A stretch of 64,000 nt of DNA from a virus, in the IMG/VR virus record IMGVR_UViG_3300042691_015010, positions 6,002 through 70,001 of that record. One strand, written 5' to 3'. The notes beneath the pieces are model-generated. The model saw nothing but the letters and a program-made list of their open reading frames with translations. It was not told the origin of the DNA and searched no databases. This document shows positions 816 to 55,001 of the stretch, in pieces; position 1 is the stretch's first letter, and each line of letters opens with the position of its first letter. The position numbers and the translations under genes were made by a program.

Positions 816-1007
816 ATGAAATCGTGGACACTAGAAGTAAAACAAATAGAAGATGGCGATTACATATTAGAATTCAATGATGAGATTCTGGCCGAGACTG
901 GCTGGAAAGAAGGTGATAATCTCACATGGATAGACAACGGTGATGGTTCTTGGACGCTAAAAAAATTAGACGAGAATCATGAAAATACTGAGCAGAATCA
1001 AGAGTAG
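816..1007 (+). CDS. AbrB/MazE/SpoVT-like small DNA-binding protein
   Basis: AAGGA RBS; pattern DGDYILEFNDEILAETGWKEGDNLTW resembles the swapped-hairpin fold. Confidence 0.65.
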   Translation: MKSWTLEVKQIEDGDYILEFNDEILAETGWKEGDNLTWIDNGDGSWTLKKLDENHENTEQNQE

Positions 1008-1034
1008 TTTTTATTATATAATATAGGAGACATT

Positions 1035-1466
1035 ATGAGTTTAAAAGGTACAAAAACAGCGGAGTGCTTGAAAGAGGCTTTTGCTGGTGAATCAATGGCA
1101 AATCGTCGTTATCTGTATTTCGCAAATCAATGTGATATTTCAGGTGAAAACGAATTAGCATCATTGTTCCGTTCTACTGCTGAAGGTGAAACTGGTCACG
1201 CACATGGTCATATGGAATATTTGATTGAAGGTGGTGCAGGTGAACCCGGCACAGGTATGCCAGCAAAAACTGGTAAAGAAATGCTTGAAGCAGCAATCAG
1301 TGGTGAAACACATGAATACTCTGACATGTATCCTGGCATGGCAAAGATTGCACGTGAAGAAGGTTTTGATGAAGTTGCAGATTGGTTTGAAACATTAGCC
1401 AAAGCAGAACGCTCACATGCTAATCGTTATCAAAAAGCATTAGACAAACATCTTTCTGAACAATAA
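1035..1466 (+). CDS. short rubrerythrin (ferritin-like di-iron protein, no rubredoxin domain)
   Basis: [46 protein letters not shown] di-iron ExxH motifs; no C-terminal CxxC pairs. Confidence 0.92.
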
Positions 1467-1475
1467 GGGGAAACT

Positions 1476-1550
1476 ATGAAGTGGACTACACCTGCTGCAC
1501 AAGATATGCGTTTTGGTTTTGAAATCACAATGTATATTGCAAATCGTTAA
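1476..1550 (+). CDS. pqqA: coenzyme PQQ precursor peptide PqqA (24 aa; not in ORF track)
   Basis: AAGGGG RBS; translates MKWTTPAAQDMRFGFEITMYIANR with W-x-x-P, R-x-GFE and the E-x-x-x-Y cross-linking pair. Confidence 0.95.
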   Translation: MKWTTPAAQDMRFGFEITMYIANR

Positions 1551-1553
1551 AAC

Positions 1554-1579
1554 AAAAGCGGCTACCAAGCCGCTTTTTT
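1554..1579. terminator. bidirectional rho-independent terminator
   Basis: AAAAGCGGC-TACCAA-GCCGCTTTTTT between convergent genes. Confidence 0.85.
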
Positions 1580-1747
1580 GTTCCACTTTGCTTTTATTCT
1601 AAACTCGGAATCGTTTTTCATATTCTTCAAAGCAGCATTTACTTGTACTGCCAATTTACAATCTTTGGTAACAAGAATTAGATTATTACCTTTGTTGGTG
1701 TAAACGTAATATGTTTCTTCATCTTCAATATATTCAACGTACATCAT
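1562..1747 (-). CDS. hypothetical protein
   Basis: 61-aa ORF coupled (ATGA overlap) to upstream minus-strand gene. Confidence 0.6.
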   Translation of the reverse strand: MMYVEYIEDEETYYVYTNKGNNLILVTKDCKLAVQVNAALKNMKNDSEFRIKAKWNKKAAW

Positions 1748-2538
1748 TTTGGTATCTCACAGTCAATCCATTTTAGATTTTGGTAGTATTGATATCCCCA
1801 AGTACCTTTTGGTAATAGACAGCGACCCATTTCAGGATAAACTTCAATACGGATTTGTACGATAGCCCATATCAACCAAGAAACGTAAGCAATAAGAATT
1901 GTTGATATACTGTATTTCCAAATATTACATTTGATATGATTTATTCTACGGAGTTTTCTTTCTCTTGATATTCTTGCTTGTCTTTCTTGGCGCTGCATTT
2001 GTTCAGCAATAAGAACAGATTGTCGTTTGCCCATTTCTTTCATCATTGCTTCAACCTCAGTCCACAATGCACCTAATTCTGGAGGACTTTGATAAACCAT
2101 AATCTCACGAAGTTCTGTACTCATTTGCTGAAGTTGTTTTTTCATTAGAACACGATTCAATGCTCTTTTACCAAGACTGTCGTTTCCTGTATAAACTTCG
2201 GTATTACTGCGGCGCTCTTCTTCTTCAAAAACAGCCATACATTTGTAATAGTTATCAAAATATGTACCTAACTGATCACCAATTTGTTGGTAGATGTTGA
2301 CCGTTTCACCATCTTTTTTGTTGAGTTCAATGATGCGGTTCTTTTCCGCAATGTACTGATTACGTTCGGCTGTGGTAGGAGGATGATCTTTGTGTTTCTT
2401 GTTGAATTGGTCGTCCAGGTCCTTGAGAACATCTTTGATGTCCCCCGCAGCACCTTTGATATCTTTGTAAAGTTTACAGCCTTCTTTGACCAGTTTGACT
2501 GCCCCGTTGGCTAGGGCAAAGAGAGTAATCGGATCCAT
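1744..2538 (-). CDS. hypothetical coiled-coil protein with C-terminal transmembrane helix
   Basis: AAAGGA RBS on minus strand; helical charged core, hydrophobic segment YSISTILIAYVSWLIWAIV. Confidence 0.8.
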   Translation of the reverse strand: MDPITLFALANGAVKLVKEGCKLYKDIKGAAGDIKDVLKDLDDQFNKKHKDHPPTTAERNQYIAEKNRIIELNKKDGETVNIYQQIGDQLGTYFDNYYKCMAVFEEEERRSNTEVYTGNDSLGKRALNRVLMKKQLQQMSTELREIMVYQSPPELGALWTEVEAMMKEMGKRQSVLIAEQMQRQERQARISRERKLRRINHIKCNIWKYSISTILIAYVSWLIWAIVQIRIEVYPEMGRCLLPKGTWGYQYYQNLKWIDCEIPK

Positions 2539-2594
2539 TATCCTTTATGCAACATTTCCTATAAGAAACATGAAAACGTTCAAAAAAGACAATC

Positions 2595-2624
2595 TTGACA
2601 ATCACCCACTATTTATGCTACAAT
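2595..2624 (+). promoter_or_regulatory. sigma70-type early promoter
   Basis: TTGACA-N18-TACAAT with extended TG, upstream of gene at 2659. Confidence 0.75.
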
Positions 2625-2658
2625 GTGTTTTGGTGAATAAATACATCATGGAGATGTT

Positions 2659-3726
2659 ATGAGTAGAACAATTGACGTAAAGGCACTATTATCAAATAAC
2701 AAAGAACCCAAGTTTTCGGGTGAATTGTCACAATCGCAACTGACTCAGGCGCTGAGTTGGTATGCTCAAAATCGTGATAGCAAAGATGCAACAAAATACG
2801 CTACCGATTACTTCAAAAAGAAACTCAAAATCCCGGCTCCAGACGGTCTGAAATCCCAGCCCAGTACATTCGGGTTCATCTGTAGAATCGTGAGCACTGG
2901 AGGGGTCCTAAACGCTTCCAACACTACTTGGTTCAATGAAACAATCGACAAACTCAAACAAGCAACATCAGTTGCCAAACCGACAACCACAAATATCGTA
3001 TCAATTCAGGATCACATTAAGCGGAAAGCATCCGACTGTATCGGAGAACTGGAAGGTCAAATTGACGAATTGATAACAACAGAGTTCAAAGCAAATGTTT
3101 CACCTTATGCAACAATGACTGGCATGGAAGTCAAGGGTGCACATACCAAATTTGTAATTGAACATTTCAAAACACGCCGTGCAGAATATGATGATGTTTT
3201 GACAACCACTGATGCTGATATCAAAGAAGCATATTCAAACTTTACGAAAACACAATTGAAAAAACTTGTTGCATATTGTGATCAGGTAATTGTTGATAGC
3301 ATGAAACTTGCTGGTGATGCGGTGAAGTCACGCAAGCCACGCAAACGCAAGGCAAAATCGGCCGATCAAGTTGTTGCTAAAATGAACTACGCAAAAGATT
3401 TTGCCGAATTGAAACTTGTGTCTATTGATCCTAAAACAATCATCGGTGCATCTTCATTGTGGGTGTATAATACCAAAACACGTAAACTTGGTGTTTATCA
3501 TGCACTTGATGCTGTTGGTCTTGGTATCAAAGGTTCTACGATACAAAACTTTGCCGAGAGTAAGTCAATCAGCAAAACGCTGCGTAAGCCAGCAGTTACT
3601 TTACCAGAAGTATTGAAAGCTGGTAAAGTTGCACTCCGAAACATACTAAACGACATTCGTGCCGCAGAAACACAGTTGACAGGCCGAATCAATAATGATA
3701 CAATTTTATTGAGAACAGTAAAATGA
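2659..3726 (+). CDS. conserved hypothetical protein of T4-like phages
   Basis: 355-aa ORF with GGAG RBS; C-terminal LWVYNTKTRKLGVY...KTLRKP...LTGRIN pattern; coupled to rnh. Confidence 0.8.
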   Translation: MSRTIDVKALLSNNKEPKFSGELSQSQLTQALSWYAQNRDSKDATKYATDYFKKKLKIPAPDGLKSQPSTFGFICRIVSTGGVLNASNTTWFNETIDKLKQATSVAKPTTTNIVSIQDHIKRKASDCIGELEGQIDELITTEFKANVSPYATMTGMEVKGAHTKFVIEHFKTRRAEYDDVLTTTDADIKEAYSNFTKTQLKKLVAYCDQVIVDSMKLAGDAVKSRKPRKRKAKSADQVVAKMNYAKDFAELKLVSIDPKTIIGASSLWVYNTKTRKLGVYHALDAVGLGIKGSTIQNFAESKSISKTLRKPAVTLPEVLKAGKVALRNILNDIRAAETQLTGRINNDTILLRTVK

Positions 3727-4571
3727 TAATCTTTGACTACAATCAAGTAGCCATCTCTACATTGATGGAACAGATCGGTTCATCTAAAAAACCGGTTGAA
3801 GAAGCATTGGTACGACACATGATACTCAATGTTATCCGAACATATGTAAAGAAATTCAAGGCTACACATGGACCAGAAGTGGTAATTGCATGTGACAATC
3901 GCAATTACTGGCGCCGTGAAGTATTTCCACAATACAAAGCATCACGTAGAAAAGCACGTGAGTCCTCTGGTCATGACTGGAACTCCATCTTTGAATGTCT
4001 ACACAAAATCAAAGAAGAACTAAAAGAACATTCACCATACAAAGTGGTTGATGTTGATACCGCAGAAGCAGATGATATTATTGCCACTTTGACGATACGC
4101 AATTCGGCGCATCAAAAGATAATGATTCTATCATCCGACAAAGACTTTGCACAGTTGCAAAAGTTTGCCAATGTTGAGCAGTATTCGCCAATACTAAAGA
4201 AGTTCATCAAAGAACCTCTGCCAGCGGTGCAATTGAAACAGATGATTATTCGTGGTGACAAGGGCGACGGCATACCAAACATCCTATCTGCTGATGATAG
4301 CATTATCAATGGTATTCGTCAAAAGCCTATCACTGAAGCCAAAATCATAAACTGGCTCAATCAAGCACCAGAAGAGTTCTGTGAAGGTGAAATGCTGCGT
4401 AATTACAAACGCAATGAAATGATGATTGATCTGACCAAAGTGCCAGAAACACTCCAGCAATCCATCATAGATACATATGATAGTGCTACTGGTCACACCA
4501 AACAGCATTTCATGAATTACATGATTGCAAATAAACTGAAAAACTTGATTGAAGTCATTGACGAATTTTAG
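3723..4571 (+). CDS. rnh: T4-type RNase H / 5'-3' exonuclease
   Basis: IIFDYNQV, WRREVFPQYKASR, EADDIIA, ILSSDKDFAQLQ, GDKGDGIPNI. Confidence 0.95.
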   Translation: MIIFDYNQVAISTLMEQIGSSKKPVEEALVRHMILNVIRTYVKKFKATHGPEVVIACDNRNYWRREVFPQYKASRRKARESSGHDWNSIFECLHKIKEELKEHSPYKVVDVDTAEADDIIATLTIRNSAHQKIMILSSDKDFAQLQKFANVEQYSPILKKFIKEPLPAVQLKQMIIRGDKGDGIPNILSADDSIINGIRQKPITEAKIINWLNQAPEEFCEGEMLRNYKRNEMMIDLTKVPETLQQSIIDTYDSATGHTKQHFMNYMIANKLKNLIEVIDEF

Positions 4572-4583
4572 AAATGGAAAACT

Positions 4584-5015
4584 ATGAGTTCTGAGAAACT
4601 ATACTCCGAAATATTTGAAGAGTTTGAAAAAACAACAACAAAACAGGAACGAATAAACCTTCTTCGTCGTGAAGGCGATGAACGCTTTCGTTTCTTTCTA
4701 CAATTAGCATTCAATCCTGCAATTGAGTTTGATATTGTGTTACCACACATGTATCGTCCAGCAAAAGAACCAGCTGGGTTGAACTTTGCTTATCTTGATA
4801 CCGAGATGCCTAAGATGTATCGGTTTATCAAGAATCATCCAATGCGTCCACCAGAGTTTACCGCAGATAAGACTACGCAGATTATTTTGGTTATATTAGA
4901 ATCACTGCACCGTGATGAGTCTGCGCTTTTTCTGAAAATACTAAAAAAAGAATTCAAAGTAAAAAATCTTACACACAATTTAGTCAAAGAAGCATTTCCT
5001 GATTTAGTGATATGA
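4584..5015 (+). CDS. conserved hypothetical protein (T4-like, usually downstream of rnh)
   Basis: ILESLHRDESALF...LVKEAFPDL pattern. Confidence 0.75.
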   Translation: MSSEKLYSEIFEEFEKTTTKQERINLLRREGDERFRFFLQLAFNPAIEFDIVLPHMYRPAKEPAGLNFAYLDTEMPKMYRFIKNHPMRPPEFTADKTTQIILVILESLHRDESALFLKILKKEFKVKNLTHNLVKEAFPDLVI

Positions 5016-5509
5016 GAATAGTCGTTGTCTCTGGTGGTTTTGATCCCATTCATTCAGGTCATCTTGCAATGCTGCGTGAAGCAGCGGGCATGGGCGACAA
5101 ACTAATCGTTGGTGTAAACTCCGACATCTGGCTCACACGCAAGAAAGGCAAACCGTTCATGAACATACATGAACGCAAGGCTATTCTGCAAGCAATTCGT
5201 TGGGTAGATGAAGTGTTGGAGTTTGACGATTCTGATGGTACTGCATGTGAATTACTTGAACGAGTAATATCATATTATACAACACGAATATATGAAAGTC
5301 ATGAGTTTATTTTCGCAAACGGCGGAGATAGAACTGAAGAAAACAATGCCGAAGCAAATGTACCTGGATGGCAATTTGCTTATGGTGTTGGTGGTAGTGA
5401 TAAAAGGAATTCATCATCTTGGTTATTGAGGAGCTGGAATGAAAGTAGCGATAGTGACACCGACCATAGGTTCAGATTATTTGGAGAAGTGCGTAGAGTC
5501 AATCCGTAA
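5012..5509 (+). CDS. cytidylyltransferase-like nucleotidyltransferase (TagD/RfaE-like)
   Basis: VVSGGFDPIHSGH (HxGH), LIVGVNSD, FANGGDR, SSS motifs. Confidence 0.9.
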   Translation: MRIVVVSGGFDPIHSGHLAMLREAAGMGDKLIVGVNSDIWLTRKKGKPFMNIHERKAILQAIRWVDEVLEFDDSDGTACELLERVISYYTTRIYESHEFIFANGGDRTEENNAEANVPGWQFAYGVGGSDKRNSSSWLLRSWNESSDSDTDHRFRLFGEVRRVNP

Positions 5510-6197
5510 TCAAACTTATGAAAATCTAACACATTATATTTTTGTTGATGGTGACGAATATACAGACAAAGTTATAGAAGTCACAAAAAATATTTCTGAT
5601 GAAAAAATAAAAGGAGTATTTCTTGAAGAGAATGTTGGCAAAGGTTGGTACGGGCATCGTGTATATGCTGCATGTGGTTTTCTTGTCAATGCTGATGTTG
5701 TATGTTATCTTGACGAAGATAATTGGTTTGAACCTAATCATGTTGAGAAACTTGTGGAGAGAATCCAAAAAGGTGCTGATTGGGCATACTCACTGAGAAA
5801 GATTGTTGATAAAGAAGGTAATTATGTTTGTGATGATAACTGTGAATCATTAGGCCAATGGCCAATCTATTTCAATCCCGATGCATATCATATTGATACT
5901 TCATCATTCATGGTGAAGGCTGATATTGCCCGTAAACTTGGTGCAGCATGGTATGGACAGTGGGGTGCAGATCGCCAGTTCTTCAATGCACTGAAGCAAT
6001 ATTTTCCAAACTTTGCATGTTCAAAACAGTATTCGTTGAACTATCGGTTAGATGGTAATCCTAATTCTGTGAATGCAGAGTTCTTTGATAAAGGTAATGC
6101 AGAAAACGCCAAACAATATCCAGATGGCTTTCCTTGGCAAAAGCAATACTCTGAAGAGTATATTGTAGGTCCTGGTATAACAATAGTGAGTGGATAA
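5439..6197 (+). CDS. glycosyltransferase family 2
   Basis: VAIVTPT, ESIRNQTYEN, FVDG, YLDEDNW (DxD). Confidence 0.88.
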   Translation: MKVAIVTPTIGSDYLEKCVESIRNQTYENLTHYIFVDGDEYTDKVIEVTKNISDEKIKGVFLEENVGKGWYGHRVYAACGFLVNADVVCYLDEDNWFEPNHVEKLVERIQKGADWAYSLRKIVDKEGNYVCDDNCESLGQWPIYFNPDAYHIDTSSFMVKADIARKLGAAWYGQWGADRQFFNALKQYFPNFACSKQYSLNYRLDGNPNSVNAEFFDKGNAENAKQYPDGFPWQKQYSEEYIVGPGITIVSG

Positions 6198-6397
6198 TGT
6201 CAGAAACACATAAGAGAACGATTGTTCGTGCAATCAGTTGGCGTATCGTAGCAACATTAGTTACAGCAGCATTTACAGGACTGTCTGGTGCTATTATCAT
6301 CAATATTTGGATGACTGTTGCACATTACATTCACGAAAGAGCATGGTTGAAATTGAATTGGGGAAAAATAAATGAAAGTGCAGAACACGGAGATTGA
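6197..6397 (+). CDS. DUF2061-like small membrane protein
   Basis: ETHKRTIVRAISWRIVAT...YIHERAW pattern. Confidence 0.75.
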   Translation: MSETHKRTIVRAISWRIVATLVTAAFTGLSGAIIINIWMTVAHYIHERAWLKLNWGKINESAEHGD

Positions 6398-6869
6398 AGG
6401 ACTAAAAGTTATTCAACCGATAGTGTATGAAGATTATCGTGGCACAAACTTTGAATCATACAACAAGTTTACCTATCATCATGATGACATCACACACTCA
6501 TTTGTAGTAGATAGCATTTCAACATCACGCAAGCATGTTCTTCGTGGTATTCATGGTGATGACAAAACCACAAAGCTAGTTTCATGTTTATATGGTACAA
6601 TTTTTGTTGTGGTAGTTGATACTAGATATCCGTCAAGAACTTTTAGGGTGTATGAAACATTTACTTTGTCTGATAGAAACAAACATCAATTGTTGATTCC
6701 ACCTGGGTGTGGTAATGCTCACTTAGTTATGTCTGACGAGTGTGTATTCAGTTACAAACTTGATCAATATTATGATCGTGATTCACAGTTTACAATCAAG
6801 TGGAATGATCCGATGTATAACATTCCTTGGCCTATAAAAAATCCTATTTTGTCAGAAAGAGATAGATGA
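6372..6869 (+). CDS. rmlC: dTDP-4-dehydrorhamnose 3,5-epimerase-like cupin
   Basis: EDYRG, VLRGIH, KLVSCLYG, LLIPPGCGNAH, WNDP...WP...PILSERD. Confidence 0.9.
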   Translation: MKVQNTEIEGLKVIQPIVYEDYRGTNFESYNKFTYHHDDITHSFVVDSISTSRKHVLRGIHGDDKTTKLVSCLYGTIFVVVVDTRYPSRTFRVYETFTLSDRNKHQLLIPPGCGNAHLVMSDECVFSYKLDQYYDRDSQFTIKWNDPMYNIPWPIKNPILSERDR

Positions 6870-7840
6870 GAACAGCACTTGTTACTGGTGGTGCAGGTTA
6901 TCTTGGATCACACTTAGCAAAAGCACTGAAGCAAGCAGGATATTACACATTTTGTTTTGATTTGAAACTCCCAGAAAATAGAAAGTATTGGGACAATCAA
7001 ATCATGGGTGATATTCGTAGTCGTGAAGATTTAGATGAAGTATTTGAAAAGTTTGGTCGAATACATAAACAAAAGTTTGATGTAGTATTTCATCTTGCCG
7101 GACTCATTGAAGTTGGCGAATCTGTCAACGAGCCTGAAGAATATTGGCAAACAAACGTAGGTGGCACTTGCAATCTACTTACCACAATGAAATCATATAA
7201 TGTTAGGAATATTGTTTACTCTTCTACTGCTGGGCTTTATCGTTCGACTGGGACGGACCTATCAGAAAAAGATCAAATAGCAGAAAACAATCCGTATGCA
7301 AACAGCAAACATGCTGCGGAATGTGCAATCCGTAATTCAACTATGAATTATGTTATCTTTAGATTTTTCAATCTTGCTGGTGCTGATCCAGAATGTGAGA
7401 TGGGTGAATGCCATGATCCAGAAACACACTTGATTCCGGCAATGTTTGAAAATCTAAATAACTTTGTTATCAATGGTGATGGATACAGAACTGTTGATGG
7501 AACTTGTGTTCGTGATTATGTGCACGTATCGGATGTTGCTGATGCACATATTCTAGCCGACAACTATTTACAAACACGATTATCAAACCAACCAAGATTA
7601 TTCAATCTAGGCACTGGAAAAGGTCACACTATTTTACAAGTGATTGACGCTGCTGAAAAAGAATTGAAAGTCAAAGTAGACTATTCTTTTGGTCCAAGAA
7701 GAGAGGGTGATCCTCCACGATTGGTCGCAATTCCAGACCTTGCCAAAACATTTCTAAACTTCAAACCTAAACATAATTTGACATCTATTTTGAGAACGGC
7801 ATATAATTGGTATGAGCACCGAAACAGAAATACAATTTGA
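6866..7840 (+). CDS. galE: UDP-glucose 4-epimerase
   Basis: LVTGGAGYLGSH, VGESV, YANSK (YxxxK), RFFNLAGA, ETHLIP, DGTCVRDYVHVSD, RREGDP. Confidence 0.92.
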   Translation: MRTALVTGGAGYLGSHLAKALKQAGYYTFCFDLKLPENRKYWDNQIMGDIRSREDLDEVFEKFGRIHKQKFDVVFHLAGLIEVGESVNEPEEYWQTNVGGTCNLLTTMKSYNVRNIVYSSTAGLYRSTGTDLSEKDQIAENNPYANSKHAAECAIRNSTMNYVIFRFFNLAGADPECEMGECHDPETHLIPAMFENLNNFVINGDGYRTVDGTCVRDYVHVSDVADAHILADNYLQTRLSNQPRLFNLGTGKGHTILQVIDAAEKELKVKVDYSFGPRREGDPPRLVAIPDLAKTFLNFKPKHNLTSILRTAYNWYEHRNRNTI

Positions 7841-8662: not shown

Positions 8663-9592
8663 ATGCCACCTATTCTTGGATCATTTGGATTAGCTTCAAT
8701 TAATTCATATGGTTTTCTAAATCTGCGTTCTTCCGGTCCGACCATCAACATACAATATCTCATAGTTGGTGGTGGTTCGTGTGGTGGAGTTTCTGGTGGT
8801 GCTCACGTTGCTGGTGGTGGTGGCGCTGGCGGCGCAAATAGAGGTTTCGATTTCTTTTCAATAGGTGTACCCATTACTGTAAGCATAGGTGGTGGAGCAG
8901 CAGCACCTCTTTCAACAACTTCACCAGACTGGCAAGTTGTTAATGGAGGTAACTCATTCATTCAAGGTGGTGGTAAAGCAAGAATCAATGGGTATGGTGG
9001 TGGTTATGGTGGAGGATACACTGGAGGACCTACTTCTGGTAGTTCGGGTGGTTCTGGTGGTGGTGGAGGTCCGAATGATTCTGGTAGTCCATCTCTTTAC
9101 CCAACTCAAGGCAATGCTGGCGGCGCAGGACAAAATCCTGGAAGTGCTATTCAAGGCTTAGGCGGCGGTGGCGGTGGTGCCGGTGTTGCTGGTGGGCAAG
9201 GTCCTGGTGGAAATGGATACACTTGGCTTGATGGTGTTGTGTATGCTGGTGGTGGAGGTGGTGGAGCAGGATCGACTAGAAGTATTCAGCCGGGCGGCAC
9301 TGGTGGTGGAGGCAATGGGGCCATATATCCTGGAACCGGCACTGGTGCTGTTGGTGCTCCTGGTGGAACTAATACTGGTGGTGGTGGAGGTGGTGCTTCT
9401 TCTCAGCCAGGCGGTGGCCTTACTGGTGGTGGTGCTGGAGGATCTGGTGTAGTTCTTTTTGCACAACTTCTATCTCCGCCGGATGGTACGCCTAATGCTC
9501 CAGCAACAACTACAGGATCTCCGACGATAACAACAAATGCGACATATAGGTTTTACAAATTCACTGGCGCAGGAACAATAACCTTCATATAA
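8663..9592 (+). CDS. glycine-rich (polyglycine-II type) putative adhesin, one module
   Basis: YLIVGGG...GGGGAGG...YAGGGGGG...NTGGGGGG...GGSGVV module; ends YRFYKFTGAGTITF. Confidence 0.8.
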   Translation: MPPILGSFGLASINSYGFLNLRSSGPTINIQYLIVGGGSCGGVSGGAHVAGGGGAGGANRGFDFFSIGVPITVSIGGGAAAPLSTTSPDWQVVNGGNSFIQGGGKARINGYGGGYGGGYTGGPTSGSSGGSGGGGGPNDSGSPSLYPTQGNAGGAGQNPGSAIQGLGGGGGGAGVAGGQGPGGNGYTWLDGVVYAGGGGGGAGSTRSIQPGGTGGGGNGAIYPGTGTGAVGAPGGTNTGGGGGGASSQPGGGLTGGGAGGSGVVLFAQLLSPPDGTPNAPATTTGSPTITTNATYRFYKFTGAGTITFI

Positions 9593-9641: not shown

Positions 9642-10262
9642 ATGCCTTTAACTAGAATAACTACGGGCGGTATAAGCGACTCAAATGTTACTGGGCCTAA
9701 AATTGGTACTGGTGCTATTAGTTCCAACAATTTTGCCGGTGGTGGTATTACGTCAAATGTGTTGTCACAGAATTTGACACTATCTGTTGCACGTGTATCT
9801 GAAGCATTAAACATCAATAGTACAGTAATTGGTGATAAATCAGCAAGTGGAACAAACGTAAACATTGATGTTGTAAACACTACTGTATATTATTTTTCTT
9901 CAAATACCACTGGTAACGTAACATTCAATCTTCGTGGCAATAATGTAAATACTTTTGATTCACAAGTTCAGGTCGGTAGCACTGTTTCTGTTGTTATCAC
10001 TCTTCGCCACAATACAGCAGCGGGTCGTGCTTGCACAAATGTAATGATTGATGGTGGCTTGATTACAACAACAAAAGCAAATCCAGATTCGCCAACAAGT
10101 AATTTAATTTTCTATGCAGGAAATACTGCTCCTGCATTTGATTCTTTAAGTGCATATCCCGCAACGACTTTAGAAACCAACGTGATTGGTATCAATATCT
10201 TCAAAAAGGCAGCAAACTCATATTTTGTTTTATATTCTAATACATTATTTGGGTTGACATAA
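9642..10262 (+). CDS. putative virion fibre/adaptor protein
   Basis: late promoter; MPLTRI start, VTGPKIGTGAI repeat, C-terminal beta domain VYYFSSNTTGNVTFNLRG. Confidence 0.75.
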   Translation: MPLTRITTGGISDSNVTGPKIGTGAISSNNFAGGGITSNVLSQNLTLSVARVSEALNINSTVIGDKSASGTNVNIDVVNTTVYYFSSNTTGNVTFNLRGNNVNTFDSQVQVGSTVSVVITLRHNTAAGRACTNVMIDGGLITTTKANPDSPTSNLIFYAGNTAPAFDSLSAYPATTLETNVIGINIFKKAANSYFVLYSNTLFGLT

Positions 10263-13200
10263 TGCCACTTTTAGCAACAATTGGTAATGGTTCATTTTTA
10301 TCATATGGTCTTGTAAAACGACCGACCTTATTTTACGAACAAATATTAATATTCAAAGGTTCGAGCACTTGGACTGTACCCGAGAATATCAATTCAATTG
10401 AATATCTTGTTGTCGCTGGCGGTGGTGGTGGTGGTGGATCAAGAGCCGGTAGTCACAACGCAGGTGGTGGTGGGGCAGGTGGTTTACTGACGGGTACCGC
10501 TACAGTAACATCCTGTACAACATTGTCTATTGTTGTTGGTGGTGGTGGATCTGGAACGATGGATGGTTTTGGTGCTACATCTGGTGCAGGTTCTTCAATT
10601 ACTTCTCCCTCACTCTCTTTCACGACTACAGGCGGTGGTGCTGGTGGTGGTGTAGAAAATAATCCTGCTGGTGGTGGTAATGGTGCTGCTGGTGGTTCTG
10701 GTGGAGGTGGTTCGGGGCCATTTAATACAGGAGGCACAGGAACGCCGGGTCAAGGAAATAATGGTGGTAATTTGGCCGGTGGCGGTGGTGGTGCTGGTGG
10801 CGCTGGTGGTACTCCTGCTGGTGGCATTGGTGTTTATTCTGCTATTACTGGAACCACTGTAGGTTATGCTGGTGGAGGTGGTAGTATTAATGCTGCTGCT
10901 AATGATTTTGGTGGTGGTAGAGGTGGTACAGTTGCAGTTACTACTACAAATGGAACACAATTTACTGGTGGTGGTGGAGGTGGTGCCGACTCTGGTGGCC
11001 CAACGCAAGGTGCTGCCGGTGGTTCGGGTGTTGTAGTCATAAAATATCTGACTACTAGTTTTACTGCTGGAACAGTTGTTAGAGTATTCAATGATTCAGG
11101 ATCATATGTCGTACCAACTGGAGTTAATAGAATTAACTATCTTGTTGTCGCTGGTGGCGGTGCTGGCGGATTCGGTCCATCAGGAGCAACAAATGGTGGC
11201 GGTGGCGGCGCTGGTGGCTTCGTATTATCTTATGGTGTTCCAGTTACACCTGGCGGCACATACGCAGTGACGGTTGGTGCTGGTGGTGCTGGTGGTCCTA
11301 GTGCTGGAGTTCAAGGAACTAATTCAACTTTAGTCGGACCTGGTGTATCAGTCACAGCATATGGTGGTGGTGGCGGCGCTCAAAATGGTAATGGTGGTAA
11401 TGGTGGTTCGGGTGGTGGAGCAAGCACAGGCTTTGCCGGACCTGCTTTAGTTGGTGGCTCGGGTGTATACTCCGGTAGCCCATATGTAAGTGCACCAGCA
11501 CAAGGTAATGATGGTGGAAACGGCCGTCCAGCAAGTGCTGGTGGCGGCGGTGGCGCTGGTGGTAGAGGTCGCAATAGCACAGATTTACGTGATAGATTAT
11601 TCTCTGGTGGATTTGGAGTTTGGTCAACAATATCTGGCGCTAATACTGGATACGCTGGTGGTGGCGCTGCTGGCGATTCTGGTTTTGGAGCATTCCAGTG
11701 GGGTGGTGCTAATACTTCAGCTACAGCAAACAATAATACTGGTGGTGGTGGCGGTGGTTCGGCTGGAAGTGCTGTTACCGGAAGTGGTGGTTCGGGTGTT
11801 GTCGTAATCAGTTATGATGTAGGTTCAATACTTCCATATCCAACAGTAAATCCTAATTCTGGATATCAAACATTTACTTCATCGGGTACATTTACAGTGC
11901 CAACTGGAATTACTTTACTTGATTTATTTGGTGTTGGCGGTGGCGGCGGTGGTGGTTCATCTAGAGGAAATCCAGCACCATCAGGAACGCAAGATTTTAC
12001 AGCAAGTGGAACATGGACTGTTCCTGCTGGTGTTAATTATGTAGATTATTTGGTAGTTGGTGGTGGTGGATGTGGTGGTATTTCTGGTGGTTCACACCTT
12101 GCCGGTGGTGGTGGTGCTGGAGGTGTAGTAACTGGAACAAGATTGGCTGTAACACCAGGAGCATCAATATCAGTTAGTGTTGGTGGTGGCGCTGCTGCTC
12201 CAGTTGGTACAGGATCACCTAATTGGCAAAGAGCACGAGGAACAGATTCTTCGTTTTCATTTCCAGGTACAAGTGTCACTGCATATGGCGGTGGTCATGG
12301 CGGCGGTGCTACAAGTGGTGCTGATGAGGGACAATCTGGTGGATCGGGTGGTGGTGGTGGAACAGGTCAACCCGGTGGTCCTGGCACACTGGGTCAAGGA
12401 AATAATGGTGGTTCTGGACTTAATCCACAAAGCACAGGATATGGTGGCGGTGGTGGTGGAGCTGGTGCTGCTGGATCAAATTCACCTGTCGTTGGTAAAG
12501 GCGGTGATGGTATAACTTGGAATAGTTACACTGTTGGTGGTGGTGGAGGTGGTGGTGTTTCAACTCAACCAGTCGCTCCCGGTGGATCTGGAGGTGGTGG
12601 TGCTGGTGGAAAATTCCCTGCAACTTCTGCAAGTAATGGTGGAACGAACACTGGCGGCGGTGGTGGTGGAGCATCAAGCACACCCGGAGGTGATTTGTTA
12701 GGTGGTGGTGCTGGTGGTTCCGGTCGTGTTATATTTAAGTGGACGAATGGATTAGTTTATAAAGGCGGTGGTGGAGGTGCAGGAGGATATAGAATTCAGT
12801 CTAATTTTCCAGTAACACCCGGAGCAACATTTACTGTTACTGTAGGCCCTGGCGGTGCCTCAGATACACAAGGTACATTAACTTCTGTTACCGGTCCGAG
12901 TCTTGCTTTTACTGCTGATGGTGGTGGTAAAGGCGGTAGTGGTGCTGTCGGCGGCAGTGGTGGTGCTGGTGGAGGTGGTTCTGAAACTTTTGCTGGAGGT
13001 CCTGCGTCAACTGGCGATGTAATTGGTTTTGCTGGCGGCGCTGGTTCACCAACCACTCCGGGAACCGCAGGTGGTGGTGGCGGTGGTGGAAGTGTAGGGG
13101 GAACACCTGCAACTGGTATAGGTGGAATTGGAATAACAAGCTCATTCATAGGAACAACAAATGTATATGCCGGTGGTGGTGCGGGTGGAACTCCAGCATC

Positions 13201-13402
13201 TTATCCTGCCGGTGCTGGTGGCGCTTCATATGGTGGCGGTTTACCTAGCACAACAGGCAATGGTGTATCGGGCACACCAAACACCGGTGGAGGTGGTGGT
13301 GGTGCACCATCATTCCCGGCAAGCGGTGGAACTGGTGGTTCTGGTATAATTGCATTTAGATGGTGGGCACAAGGTGGTTTTCCTGTAACACCACAAAGAT
13401 AA
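10262..13402 (+). CDS. glycine-rich putative adhesin, four modules (one nested)
   Basis: Repeated F..S..WTVP.G...YLVVAGGG...GGSG.V.I modules. Confidence 0.85.
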   Translation: MPLLATIGNGSFLSYGLVKRPTLFYEQILIFKGSSTWTVPENINSIEYLVVAGGGGGGGSRAGSHNAGGGGAGGLLTGTATVTSCTTLSIVVGGGGSGTMDGFGATSGAGSSITSPSLSFTTTGGGAGGGVENNPAGGGNGAAGGSGGGGSGPFNTGGTGTPGQGNNGGNLAGGGGGAGGAGGTPAGGIGVYSAITGTTVGYAGGGGSINAAANDFGGGRGGTVAVTTTNGTQFTGGGGGGADSGGPTQGAAGGSGVVVIKYLTTSFTAGTVVRVFNDSGSYVVPTGVNRINYLVVAGGGAGGFGPSGATNGGGGGAGGFVLSYGVPVTPGGTYAVTVGAGGAGGPSAGVQGTNSTLVGPGVSVTAYGGGGGAQNGNGGNGGSGGGASTGFAGPALVGGSGVYSGSPYVSAPAQGNDGGNGRPASAGGGGGAGGRGRNSTDLRDRLFSGGFGVWSTISGANTGYAGGGAAGDSGFGAFQWGGANTSATANNNTGGGGGGSAGSAVTGSGGSGVVVISYDVGSILPYPTVNPNSGYQTFTSSGTFTVPTGITLLDLFGVGGGGGGGSSRGNPAPSGTQDFTASGTWTVPAGVNYVDYLVVGGGGCGGISGGSHLAGGGGAGGVVTGTRLAVTPGASISVSVGGGAAAPVGTGSPNWQRARGTDSSFSFPGTSVTAYGGGHGGGATSGADEGQSGGSGGGGGTGQPGGPGTLGQGNNGGSGLNPQSTGYGGGGGGAGAAGSNSPVVGKGGDGITWNSYTVGGGGGGGVSTQPVAPGGSGGGGAGGKFPATSASNGGTNTGGGGGGASSTPGGDLLGGGAGGSGRVIFKWTNGLVYKGGGGGAGGYRIQSNFPVTPGATFTVTVGPGGASDTQGTLTSVTGPSLAFTADGGGKGGSGAVGGSGGAGGGGSETFAGGPASTGDVIGFAGGAGSPTTPGTAGGGGGGGSVGGTPATGIGGIGITSSFIGTTNVYAGGGAGGTPASYPAGAGGASYGGGLPSTTGNGVSGTPNTGGGGGGAPSFPASGGTGGSGIIAFRWWAQGGFPVTPQR

Positions 13403-17634: not shown

Positions 17635-17826
17635 ATGCATGAAGTGGCAAGAAAATTAGCAGAGAAATCTGGATATAATGTGAAGTACACTGAGACACAA
17701 CATAATGGTCATATCATGAGAAATCTTTTGGATACATATGCCCGTAATGTTGCACGTGAATGTGCTGCTTTAGTTGATACGGAAGAAGATAAGCAGAAGA
17801 TACTAAATCATTTTGATATCAAATAG
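17635..17826 (+). CDS. hypothetical protein
   Basis: GGTGGA RBS; VARECAALV...ILNHF. Confidence 0.7.
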   Translation: MHEVARKLAEKSGYNVKYTETQHNGHIMRNLLDTYARNVARECAALVDTEEDKQKILNHFDIK

Positions 17827-17829
17827 AAT

Positions 17830-18131
17830 TGTTGTAACTCCTTCAAAGTGAAGGCATTCTGGACGGCGGTTCAATTCCGCCCAGCTCCACCAGAAACACA
17901 TAGTTGTCCTAGATGAAAGAAACCTCTGAGGGCTCTAGCGGGGATTGTGTGTTTCTGATGGGGCTGACCTGGTTTCGACAGGGTGAGATAGTGGAGAAGG
18001 CAACACAGTAGGCGATGACTGTAAATCAAGCAAATCTATAAATGCAAATGACGCATTTTACGGTGAGGATCGCCTAGCGGCGTAACTTACATGGGGTCTG
18101 AGGGAGTGTACCTTATTACCAAAACACTCCC
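17830..18131 (+). ncRNA. ssrA: circularly permuted (two-piece) tmRNA; outer boundaries approximate
   Basis: T-arm + CAGCTCC-A-CCA ends at 17892 and precedes the 5' strand GGGGCTGA..GGTTTCGAC starting at 17960; G3.U70 alanine determinant; tag frame 18044-18085 ANDAFYGEDRLAA*. Confidence 0.93.
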
Positions 18132-18148
18132 ACCAATTTTATTATATT

Positions 18149-51379: not shown

Positions 51380-53749
51380 ATGGCTCTGAATAGAATCTCC
51401 GTAAGTAGAGTATCACTTAAACGAATGACTGTACCAGGTTTTGGTGCGGCTGTTACTCCCGTTACTCCTCCTGCACCAAATGTTGGTGTGCAAGTGTTTA
51501 CAGAAACTTCTGCATGGGTAGCACCACCTGGTGTAACATCAGTGGAATATCTTGTTGTTGCAGGTGGAGGTGGTGGTGGTGGAACTGATGGTGCTGGTGG
51601 TGGTGCTGGTGGATATAGAACGGGCGCTGGACTCAATGTAACAGCAAATCAAACATACACAATTGTTGTTGGTTCAGGTGGTTCAGGCGCACCTGGCGGT
51701 TCGGGTGGAAAAGGTGGCAATGGTTCAAATTCTGGAATTTGGAGTACAGGTGCGACACCTTTCTCAGCATTGTGGTCAATTGGTGGTGGAGGTGGTGGTA
51801 CTAATGGAGGTGGATTAAGAGAAGGTAATTCAGGAGGCTCTGGTGGTGGTGCTGGATATGCACCAGCTGCAACAAATGGTGGTTTAGGTACACCAGGACA
51901 AGGATTTAACGGTGGCAATTATCCAGCGCCAACCGCAGTTGGTGGTGCTGGTGGAGGTGGTGCCGGTGCTGCTGGTGGAGATACAGGAGCCACAAGAGCA
52001 GGTAATGGTGCTATAGGATTATTTTCATCTATAACTGGTGCAAATGTTGGTTATGCTGGTGGTGGAGGAGGTGGTACTCCTGGAAGTTTAGGTGCACAGG
52101 GAGTAGGAGCATTTTCGTTTGGTGGTGCAAATGGTTCAGTAGTTAATGTTACAGGTGTGGCGGGGAACAATAACACTGGTGGCGGTGGCGGTGGTGGCGG
52201 TGGTGGTTTTCCTGCTTTACCGCCAGGAGGTGCCGGTGGTTCTGGTATTGTCGTACTCAAATACACATTTGGTGATTCAACTAATCAAACATTCGTCTTT
52301 GCAAACACTGGTCAGTTTGTAGTGCCTGATGGCATCACAACAATTGATTATTTGTTGATTGGAGGTGGTGGAGGTGGTGGTGGCACCGGCGCAGGTATCG
52401 GTGGAGGTGGTGGTGGTGCTGGTGGTTATCTTGCTGGGACAGGATATCCTGTAGGACCAAATCAATTATATACAATTCAAGTTGGTGCTGGTGGTTCAGG
52501 AGGAAGTGGACAAGTTCAAGGTTCAAATGGTGTAAATACATTTATTTCCGCTGGAAATACTGCTAATGCTGCCATATTATCTGCAATTGGTGGAGGTGGT
52601 GGAGGTGGTGGTAATGGTTCACCAACAAATAACGGATTTGCTGGTGGTTCTGGCGGCGGAGCAAGTAATGGTAATGCTGGCGCAGGAACACCAGGACAAG
52701 GAAACAATGGAGGTTCAACCGATAGTGGCGCTCCAGCTTATAGACTTTCTGGCGGCGGCGGTGCTGGTGCTGCTGGTGTTTCTGGTGCATCCACAGGCAA
52801 CGGTGGCGCTGGATCATCTTCCACTATAACAGGCTCATCTGTTACATATGCGGGTGGTGGCGGCGGTGGAAACAACACTGGTCCTGCATCTTCTGGAGGA
52901 ACTGGTGGAGGTGGTGCTGGTAATGGTGGCACTGGATCAAATAATTTAGGTGGTGGTGGTGGAGGTGCTGCTAATGGAGGCACTGGTGGTAGAGGCGGCT
53001 CTGGATTTGCCGTAATCAAAATCTCCGCTGTTCAAAATAAGATAGCAGTATTCTCTAACACTGCAACATGGAATGTGCCGTTAGGTGTAACTTCAGTGGA
53101 CTATTTGGTGGTGGCTGGTGGTGGCGGTGGCGGTTATGCTTACGGTGGTGGCGGTGGCGCTGGCGGATTTAGAACAGGCACGGGATTTGCAGTTACTCCC
53201 GGTGTAAGTTATACAGTAACAATCGGAGCGGGAGGAGCGGCAAGCGCATCAAGAGGTGGAAATTCAACTTTTTCCACTATCACATCTAACGGTGGTGGAT
53301 TTGGTAATGCTAATCAAGACGGTAGTCCAGGTGGATCCGGTGCTGGCGGTAGTTATAACAGTGGTGGCGGTGCTGGTTCAGGCAACATTCCATCAACTTC
53401 TCCTAGTCAGGGAAATAATGGAGCAGGTGTTCAAGGCAATGGTGGTGGCGGCGGTGGTGGTGCTTCTCAAGCAGGACAAGGTAGAAATGGTGGCAATGGT
53501 ACTGCTTCTTCAATTACTGGAGTGAATGTTACATACGCCGGTGGCGGTGGTGGTGGTGCAGCGACTCCGGGTACAGCATTTTCTACTGGCGGCACTGGAG
53601 GTGGTGGATCTGGAGGAATTAACAACGCATCTCCTGGCGCTGTAAACACAGGGGGTGGCGGTGGCGGTGGTGGTGCCGGCGGCCCCGGTGGACCTTACAC
53701 AGATGGCGCCGCTGGTGGTTCTGGTGTCGTCGTTCTCAAATGGACTTAA
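51380..53749 (+). CDS. glycine-rich putative adhesin, three modules
   Basis: Three F..T..W..P.G....YL.V.GGG...GGSG.V..K modules. Confidence 0.85.
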   Translation: MALNRISVSRVSLKRMTVPGFGAAVTPVTPPAPNVGVQVFTETSAWVAPPGVTSVEYLVVAGGGGGGGTDGAGGGAGGYRTGAGLNVTANQTYTIVVGSGGSGAPGGSGGKGGNGSNSGIWSTGATPFSALWSIGGGGGGTNGGGLREGNSGGSGGGAGYAPAATNGGLGTPGQGFNGGNYPAPTAVGGAGGGGAGAAGGDTGATRAGNGAIGLFSSITGANVGYAGGGGGGTPGSLGAQGVGAFSFGGANGSVVNVTGVAGNNNTGGGGGGGGGGFPALPPGGAGGSGIVVLKYTFGDSTNQTFVFANTGQFVVPDGITTIDYLLIGGGGGGGGTGAGIGGGGGGAGGYLAGTGYPVGPNQLYTIQVGAGGSGGSGQVQGSNGVNTFISAGNTANAAILSAIGGGGGGGGNGSPTNNGFAGGSGGGASNGNAGAGTPGQGNNGGSTDSGAPAYRLSGGGGAGAAGVSGASTGNGGAGSSSTITGSSVTYAGGGGGGNNTGPASSGGTGGGGAGNGGTGSNNLGGGGGGAANGGTGGRGGSGFAVIKISAVQNKIAVFSNTATWNVPLGVTSVDYLVVAGGGGGGYAYGGGGGAGGFRTGTGFAVTPGVSYTVTIGAGGAASASRGGNSTFSTITSNGGGFGNANQDGSPGGSGAGGSYNSGGGAGSGNIPSTSPSQGNNGAGVQGNGGGGGGGASQAGQGRNGGNGTASSITGVNVTYAGGGGGGAATPGTAFSTGGTGGGGSGGINNASPGAVNTGGGGGGGGAGGPGGPYTDGAAGGSGVVVLKWT

Positions 53750-54617: not shown

Positions 54618-55001
54618 ATGGCAGCGCCAAACATTGTTAGCGTAACAGATATTAGAGGTAAAAGTAATGTTGCCAACGTTACAACAGTTTCATCGTCAGT
54701 CATTGTCAATGCTGTCAATTCAGGTAAAGTGTTTAAGATTAACACACTGATTGTGTCCAATGTTGACGGAACAAACGCTGGCAATGTTTCAGTAGAATTG
54801 TTTAAATTTGGCGCACAAAATACAAGTACGGGTTTAGGTAATGCAACATATGCTATTGCAAATACTGTCACTGTCCCCGCCAAATCATCATTAGACATTC
54901 TTGCAAAATCACTTTACTTAGAAGAAGGTGACCAAATCAAAGTTAAAGGTGATGCAAACAATCGTCTACATTTCATTTCATCATTTGAAGAGATTAGCTA
55001 A
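54618..55001 (+). CDS. small virion adaptor protein (MAAPNIV type)
   Basis: SGKVFKIN, SNVDGTN, TVPAKSSL, YLEEGD, SFEEIS. Confidence 0.8.
   Translation: MAAPNIVSVTDIRGKSNVANVTTVSSSVIVNAVNSGKVFKINTLIVSNVDGTNAGNVSVELFKFGAQNTSTGLGNATYAIANTVTVPAKSSLDILAKSLYLEEGDQIKVKGDANNRLHFISSFEEIS

Follow-up and report, generated by a model that had tools for sequence, protein, structure and literature searches.

The window analyzed here, a 64,000-base stretch of viral DNA, spans bases 6002–70001 of a 70,001-base IMG/VR virus record (G000) with a CheckV completeness of ~43%. It contains a same-strand block of small genes that opens with a tRNA-Gly gene (anticodon TCC, positions 729–805, + strand; found by ARAGORN, with an Rfam tRNA score of 33.8 bits against a gathering score of 29) and closes at the predicted terminator behind pqqA. 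Between these boundaries, all on the + strand, lie a 63-aa ORF of unknown function assigned to phrog_661 (816–1007, E = 3.7e-12), a rubrerythrin gene encoding 143 aa (1035–1466; Pfam PF02915, E = 2.1e-25; PDB 9onm/4di0, E about 5e-63) and pqqA itself (1476–1550), a 24-codon gene for the PQQ precursor peptide, assigned by Pfam and NCBIfam PqqA matches together with a reading of the sequence. The rubrerythrin stop codon occupies positions 1464–1466, with the pqqA start 9 nt beyond. A convergent 61-codon ORF taken from the ORF list (1562–1747, − strand) ends within the hairpin at 1551–1582. The pqqA ORF of phage Melnitz-1 also adjoins a tRNA, in that case tRNA-Leu.

The pqqA ORF runs from an ATG at 1476 to a TAA at 1548–1550 on the + strand and is translated as MKWTTPAAQDMRFGFEITMYIANR. 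A Shine-Dalgarno-like AAGGGG read from the sequence (1465–1470, + strand) lies 5 nt upstream of the ATG. Directly 3′ of the stop codon, between pqqA and the convergent ORF, is the hairpin at 1551–1582, which has a GCGGCU/AGCCGC core, an A-run before it and a U-run after it, and a calculated folding energy of −15 kcal/mol; none of 200 shuffled sequences folded equally well (z = −4.08). Flanked by both runs, it is possibly a bidirectional terminator. It was not among the output of a simple terminator scan, probably because the flanking A/U runs lengthen the stem. An earlier note on this DNA had described a 24-codon ORF with its own ribosome-binding site and a downstream terminator, and all three elements are found here.

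The same note had read the ORF as an unannotated pqqA and proposed a PqqA HMM search as a check. Pfam PF08042 (PqqA) matched the peptide with 38.9 bits (cut-off 21.1, E = 7.8e-10) over profile positions 1–19 of 19, and the NCBIfam equivalog TIGR02107 with 39.1 bits (cut-off 20, E = 4.8e-10) over positions 1–21 of 21. Both curated cut-offs are surpassed approximately two-fold, and the PF08042 match, judged by its score, is not due to chance. The E-x-x-x-Y pair that the note had pointed out is present as Glu16 and Tyr20 (E16-I-T-M-Y20). Ahead of this core stands a W-x-x-P leader (Trp3, Pro6), which we take to be the part of PqqA bound by PqqD, and the length of 24 residues fits the ~20–40 of PqqA peptides. 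By its predicted product, the window ORF is a real member of the PqqA family.

A PHROG scan of 47 ORFs identified an RNase H-type exonuclease, a gp32-type SSB and a helicase loader, along with baseplate hub and wedge proteins, a tail tube and head-closure proteins; this set of replication, baseplate and tail genes marks the virus as a T4-like myophage. Neither the pqqA peptide nor the rubrerythrin has a PHROG family. Of phage baseplate wedge proteins, that of Melnitz, a phage of OM43, resembles the window protein most (39.5% identity along 74% of the query), followed by those of the Pelagibacter phages HTVC008M and Mosig and then by those of cyanophages. Megablast of window positions 1000–4600 against GenBank phages gave no match, and near-identical DNA (≥99% likeness) was found in the freshwater and drinking-water metagenome runs X6 and X7, as 32 and 66 contig pieces from two studies. 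The T4 late-type promoter motif TATAAATA occurs at three sites in the window, fewer than the shuffled-sequence mean, and at none within 8 kb of pqqA; no sigma-70-like site was found on the + strand between positions 700 and 1476. Elsewhere in the window, PHROG matches outline a sugar-nucleotide/glycosylation cluster (5012–7840, + strand) with a heptose-phosphate adenylyltransferase-like cytidylyltransferase, a GtrB-like glycosyltransferase, a dTDP-4-dehydrorhamnose 3,5-epimerase and a nucleotide-sugar epimerase. Around the structural region, the + strand also encodes five large, scattered paralogous proteins (8663–9592, 10262–13402, 51380–53749, 55001–57502 and 57506–60094) that match phrog_2295, a family without assigned function (lowest E = 2e-121); they may be fibre or decoration proteins.

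The occurrence of pqqA in other viruses was surveyed with a degenerate DNA motif of its 10-codon core, applied to IMG/VR and to bacterial sequences; the matches are arbitrary samples, and their numbers are minimum values. In each of the two collections at least 120 contigs matched, and every viral match among those listed falls within a full-length PqqA-like ORF. Using tblastn, we also compared the peptide with 50,697 GenBank phage records, of which 12 matched: four of Melnitz (75% identity), one each of P19250A, Venkman, MEP301, MEP401 and MEP402, one uncultured spring podovirus and two contigs named 'Acinetobacter phage MD-2021a'. The nine records of cultured phages all belong to phages infecting Methylophilales/Methylophilaceae, and none of the methylophage copies inspected lacks the ATG, the ribosome site or the core EMRFGFEVTMY. 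On these counts, stand-alone pqqA genes, as predicted from their ORFs, are common in viruses. The pqqA ORF is wholly unannotated in the records of P19250A, MEP301, Venkman and MEP402. In Melnitz-1 (MZ577095.1), an antisense 'hypothetical protein' (74848–74943, − strand; 3967–4062 in locus L001) is annotated over the pqqA ORF (74882–74953, + strand). The gene is shorter than usual gene-calling limits, so AMG surveys based on called proteins will undercount it. We left the two 'Acinetobacter phage MD-2021a' matches out of the phage count, since the presence of ppk and an entire pqqABCDE operon on them suggests bacterial DNA. One of them (L004, CAKLQF020000010.1, 105204–111275) holds ppk, a 5′-nucleotidase gene and the complete operon, and resembles a bacterial chromosome.

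In the known pathway, PqqA is delivered by PqqD to PqqE, a radical-SAM enzyme that joins its Glu and Tyr, and a protease, PqqB and PqqC complete PQQ. This route from PqqA, PqqD and PqqE to the cofactor is reportedly the one laid out by Barr et al. in 2016 and by Zhu & Klinman in 2020. A six-frame profile search of the whole 70,001-base record gave 0 matches to TIGR02109, TIGR02111, TIGR02108, PF05402 and PF04055, and the profile searches detected neither pqqB–E nor a radical-SAM domain or PQQ alcohol dehydrogenase there; the lack of pqqBCDE noticed earlier in the window thus holds across the entire record. Because this record is incomplete, four other pqqA-bearing phage records were searched, namely G001 (148 kb), G002 (166 kb), G004 (356 kb, 96% complete) and the complete genome of Melnitz-1 (141,552 bases). 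None contained pqqB–E or a PQQ alcohol dehydrogenase over the cut-off, with only generic radical-SAM-level matches in G002 and G004 (17 and 22 bits, respectively; cut-off 381). As a positive control, pqqC and pqqE both exceeded the cut-off in 8/8 bacterial genomes carrying the window type of pqqA, a result that has weight because the built-in control genomes never gave a pqqC match.

The neighborhoods of the listed loci follow the same pattern. With Acinetobacter PqqB–E as tblastn queries, pqqB–E were found in the stored flanks of 0/120 viral pqqA loci among the matches listed; the same queries placed pqqB, C, D and E in the flanks of 39, 36, 32 and 30, respectively, of the 120 listed bacterial loci. 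Where the stored sequence extends 3 kb or more in both directions from a listed locus, pqqB–E lie beside pqqA in 0/30 viral and 6/15 bacterial cases. No PQQ dehydrogenase was found in the flanks of the 120 listed viral loci. A position at the head of an operon is typical, not universal, for PqqA, and the window gene does not occupy one. This does not exclude membership in the family, because 81/120 listed bacterial motif loci likewise have no pqqB–E in the stored flank and orphan copies are documented.

A record that covers ~43% of the genome could nonetheless hide pqqB–E in its unseen part, and one alternative places there, in the remaining ~57%, the whole pathway or modifying enzymes of the phage's own, whose substrate pqqA would encode. 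Besides the CheckV value, published material gives this reading some footing: a passage of a 2026 survey (PMC13188868) lists viral pqqA, pqqE and pqqD, and part of the report by Coutinho et al. (PMC7678222) describes radical-SAM genes in a related viral population. The complete Melnitz-1 and the 96% complete G004, although different phages, argue against it through their lack of pqqB, C, D and E over the cut-off, as do the merely generic matches of G002 and G004, the empty flanks of all 120 listed viral loci and the lack of a radical-SAM domain in the 70-kb record. We therefore regard a hidden phage-borne pathway as improbable.

Selection on the gene was examined in 121 viral sequences (the 120 listed loci and the window), which comprise 110 unique nucleotide versions. 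Across these 110, pN/pS is 0.17 over 22 codons, a value biased low because the motif scan selects intact cores, and 0.31 when only the 12 codons that the search motif leaves free are counted. Trp and Pro, which that motif does not cover either, are invariant in 110/110 unique sequences, with Pro encoded by all four of its codons, and the stop position is identical in all 110. The Glu and Tyr of E-x-x-x-Y fall inside the search motif, so their conservation among the viral copies is fixed by the scan. The sense frame is open in 109/109 unique sequences and the antisense frame −1 in 102/109; an open frame alone therefore does not pick the coding strand, which, on present predictions, is settled by the family match and the substitution pattern. 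Judged by that pattern, the viral pqqA copies are under purifying selection. The gene thus shows the features by which an AMG is recognized, being a host-derived metabolic gene that is carried on bona fide phages and conserved among them.

The gene directly upstream of pqqA encodes a single-domain rubrerythrin of the erythrin/sulerythrin type, with no rubredoxin domain (sulerythrin 1j30, E = 8e-53). Its best phage match is in Pelagibacter phage Mosig (63.6% identity), and rubrerythrin is rare among phages, occurring in 9/50,697 GenBank phage records. An upstream same-strand rubrerythrin within 0.5–2.3 kb of pqqA was found, besides the window, in 3 of the 120 other listed viral loci, against 0/120 bacterial loci. 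In L057, which belongs to G001, the rubrerythrin (93–518) is 77% identical to that of the window and lies about 0.5 kb from pqqA with one small ORF between; in L099 (3686–4129) and L106 (2517–2945) it is 34% and 36% identical and about 1.1 and 2.3 kb away, respectively, in each case on the same strand as pqqA. Apart from the rubrerythrin–pqqA pair, G001 and G000 have only two small ORFs in common over the 16 kb compared. The two genes may form a co-selected pair or share a common hotspot for accessory genes.

Two contigs of relatives of the phage bear on the variability of this block. A contig from run X20 has a joint (1466>1554) that appears to skip exactly the pqqA ORF (87 bases), with 24 letters on the shorter side and 90% likeness, and a contig from run X7 has a joint (992>1469) that appears to skip exactly the rubrerythrin gene (476 bases), with 29 letters on the shorter side and 90% likeness. 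The joints weakly hint that pqqA and rubrerythrin are cassettes gained or lost separately. If the 1466>1554 joint is real, pqqA is dispensable.

Such variants, which may be without pqqA or rubrerythrin, and the position of pqqA within a block of small accessory genes beside a tRNA would suit a neutral passenger, that is, a scrap of host DNA that ended up in a variable region and has no function under selection in the phage. A passenger of this kind is hard to reconcile with the relationships of the gene: among the loci listed, the nearest nucleotide relatives of the window pqqA are viral (63/69 nt in L049, L010 and L067), whereas the best bacterial match reaches 54/69 (L194). Since viral copies are nearest in nucleotides, pqqA has been inherited among phages and was not freshly captured. 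The purifying selection described above, with start, ribosome site and stop intact across 110 unique viral sequences from unrelated phage types, further counts against it, and we give this explanation very little credence.

At the peptide level, the closest bacterial sequences among the matches listed share 21–22 of 24 residues with the window peptide and come from MAGs labelled Rhodoferax, Albidiferax, Polaromonas, 'beta proteobacterium' and Burkholderiales. PqqA of L196 and L194, from a Rhodoferax MAG and a Burkholderiales MAG, differs from the window peptide at 2 of 24 positions and heads pqqABCDE, as these nearest copies do wherever enough flank is stored (L196, L194, L214 and L181). Methylophilaceae PqqA shares 16–17 of 24 residues with it among the matches listed. 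PQQ alcohol/methanol dehydrogenases exceeded the cut-off in 4/5 bacterial genomes with the window type of PqqA. Together with the restriction of the nine cultured-phage records to Methylophilales, the betaproteobacterial affinity of the nearest PqqAs supports the earlier suggestion of a PQQ-making betaproteobacterial host; the peptide comparison points to a PQQ-making betaproteobacterium and to nothing narrower. In particular, we did not accept the peptide type as firm evidence of a Comamonadaceae host, given that Melnitz, whose host is OM43, has a divergent MKW...YIMTR peptide resembling that of the window and that other viral copies are intermediate.

A permuted (two-piece) tmRNA at window positions 17760–18141 (+ strand; Rfam beta_tmRNA 146.5 bits against a gathering score of 84, tmRNA_permuted 151.6 bits against 47), with the ARAGORN tag peptide ANDAFYGEDRLAA, was considered as a host marker. 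beta_tmRNA exceeded the cut-off in 0/8 candidate host-like PQQ-making betaproteobacterial genomes and in 3/151 genomes sampled at order level, one of those three with pqqC. According to part of the Melnitz report (PMC9004378), the two-piece tmRNA is a trait of Melnitz-like phages, present in 17/47 related contigs, and resembles SAR11 versions. On these grounds it was dropped as a marker.

The termini of the peptide admit a different reading, in which it acts as a decoy or regulator that occupies host PqqD/PqqE or another partner and lowers or retimes PQQ synthesis, or in which it is diverted to another product. The copies of T4-like phages (the window, Melnitz, L049 and L057) deviate at both ends from typical Methylophilaceae PqqA (MKW... 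and ...YI[AM][NT]R), and such differences could mean altered processing. All family-invariant residues are nevertheless kept, including the W, the P, the RFGFE core, E-x-x-x-Y and the spacing of the stop, and in a decoy the loss of Glu or Tyr would be expected. Moreover, the window peptide is 22/24 identical to operon-linked bacterial PqqAs, and the peptide of phage P19250A is 23/23 identical to the copy in Ca. Methylopumilus universalis, a genome of that phage's host group. A decoy or regulatory function is in our view highly unlikely.

Set against these alternatives, we consider it quite probable that the window ORF is a functional phage pqqA AMG that feeds host PQQ synthesis and so keeps dehydrogenases loaded until lysis. 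The sequences show that the peptide belongs to the PqqA family, that the gene stands alone and recurs in phages, and that it is under purifying selection; expression, acceptance by the host enzymes and benefit to the phage are inferred. The gene would share a transcript with the rubrerythrin gene ahead of it and be the final cistron in front of the terminator. Host PqqD would bind the 24-residue peptide, the host radical-SAM enzyme PqqE would cross-link Glu16 and Tyr20, and the host protease, PqqB and PqqC would convert the cross-linked peptide to PQQ. PQQ biosynthesis consumes one PqqA peptide per cofactor; because a peptide is destroyed for each PQQ made and the enzymes are reusable, PqqA is the only consumable of the pathway. 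Under T4-like host shut-off, a 75-base gene alone would therefore suffice for the phage. PQQ-dependent methanol/alcohol dehydrogenases would then stay loaded, and energy would flow until lysis after host expression declines.

The literature on PQQ production bears on precursor supply in both directions. As far as the sections of PMC9851590 at hand go, methylotrophs keep several orphan pqqA copies, high pqqA expression goes with high PQQ synthesis, and purified PqqA was converted to PQQ by a cell extract (work cited therein). In Acetobacter, overexpression of pqqAB raised PQQ by 29%, according to an excerpt of PMC7936290. The same sections of PMC9851590 also describe limited PQQ gains from pathway overexpression and name PqqB and PqqC as possibly limiting, which speaks against a simple rate-limiting role of PqqA supply, a role that is not established. 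If the AMG reading is right, the phage props up a host pathway with a minimal cargo, the sacrificial 24-residue substrate only and none of the enzymes. XoxF/MxaF-type PQQ-dependent dehydrogenases drive methanol/alcohol oxidation in abundant freshwater and marine Betaproteobacteria, so phages that govern the supply of the cofactor could redirect carbon in the cells they infect.

PqqC releases H2O2, and the clusters of PqqE are oxygen-labile. A bolder proposal, which we hold to be possible though doubtful, is that rubrerythrin and pqqA form a dedicated two-gene phage operon for oxic PQQ biogenesis, in which the erythrin would remove the H2O2 of PqqC or shield the PqqE clusters and the peptide would supply the substrate. 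The MKW...YIANR/YIMTR lineage of T4-like and jumbo phages would then have diverged from host copies and would carry the strategy past Methylophilaceae into further PQQ-making Betaproteobacteria of fresh water, Comamonadaceae for example. The proposal arises because rubrerythrin stands near pqqA in a few viral loci and in none of the listed bacterial ones and because operon PqqAs of the Comamonadaceae type are the nearest to the window peptide.

Precursor supply by a virus has been proposed before: Coutinho et al. (2020; Microbiome 8:163, PMC7678222), in the portion available, reported viral PqqA in viruses of Lake Baikal methylotrophs and gave it the same role. The window gene is thus a further case of an already published viral pqqA, and the concept is already in print. 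As in the Baikal VP_266 phages, pqqA is carried by an uncultured freshwater phage and read as an AMG, in their case for PQQ-dependent methanol oxidation. As described in that portion of the paper, a methanol dehydrogenase gene accompanies pqqA in the Baikal representative, unlike in the window phage, for which none was found in the 70-kb record, and unlike in the 120 listed viral flanks. The pairing of pqqA with rubrerythrin is a further difference from VP_266, drawn from the paper's description, the Baikal contigs not having been identified among the loci. The available part of the 2026 survey places pqqA among viral phosphorus-cycling genes (PMC13188868). Among the titles listed in full-text searches for phage or viral pqqA there was no other relevant report, and a term search of the Melnitz and MEP401/402 papers (PMC9004378 and PMC10580990) returned no mention of a phage pqqA.

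Orphan pqqA genes of methylotrophs offer a bacterial parallel. Hyphomicrobium denitrificans FJNU-6 has five pqqA copies, and Methylovorus MP688 is another orphan-pqqA example (Ge et al. 2015), both according to the sections of PMC9851590 at hand. Like these, the window gene is an extra copy away from pqqBCDE that would raise precursor supply. The methylotroph copies are chromosomal and host-regulated, whereas the window copy lies on a lytic-type T4-like genome.

Among cultured phages, Melnitz, Venkman, MEP301, MEP401/402 and P19250A share with the window phage a stand-alone 23–24-codon ORF with its own ribosome site, and Melnitz, whose peptide is 75% identical, is the nearest cultured relative by the baseplate wedge protein. 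Unlike that of the window phage, the hosts of these phages are known (OM43 or LD28; strain H5P1 of OM43 for Melnitz and LD28 IMCC19250 for P19250A). PQQ is already present at 1 nM in the published OM43 medium, where it could hide an effect of the phage gene. The gene neighborhoods also differ: in Melnitz, pqqA lies beside tRNA-Leu under an antisense annotation, and in the window it follows rubrerythrin. A more distant analogy is offered by cyanophage psbA, which encodes D1; there the phage carries the fast-consumed part of an energy-harvesting system of the host, and the host supplies the rest. The window pqqA may be likened to it in being only the fast-consumed component. The protein and the pathway are unrelated, however: D1 is a turnover-prone structural subunit, and the pqqA peptide would be a sacrificial biosynthetic substrate.
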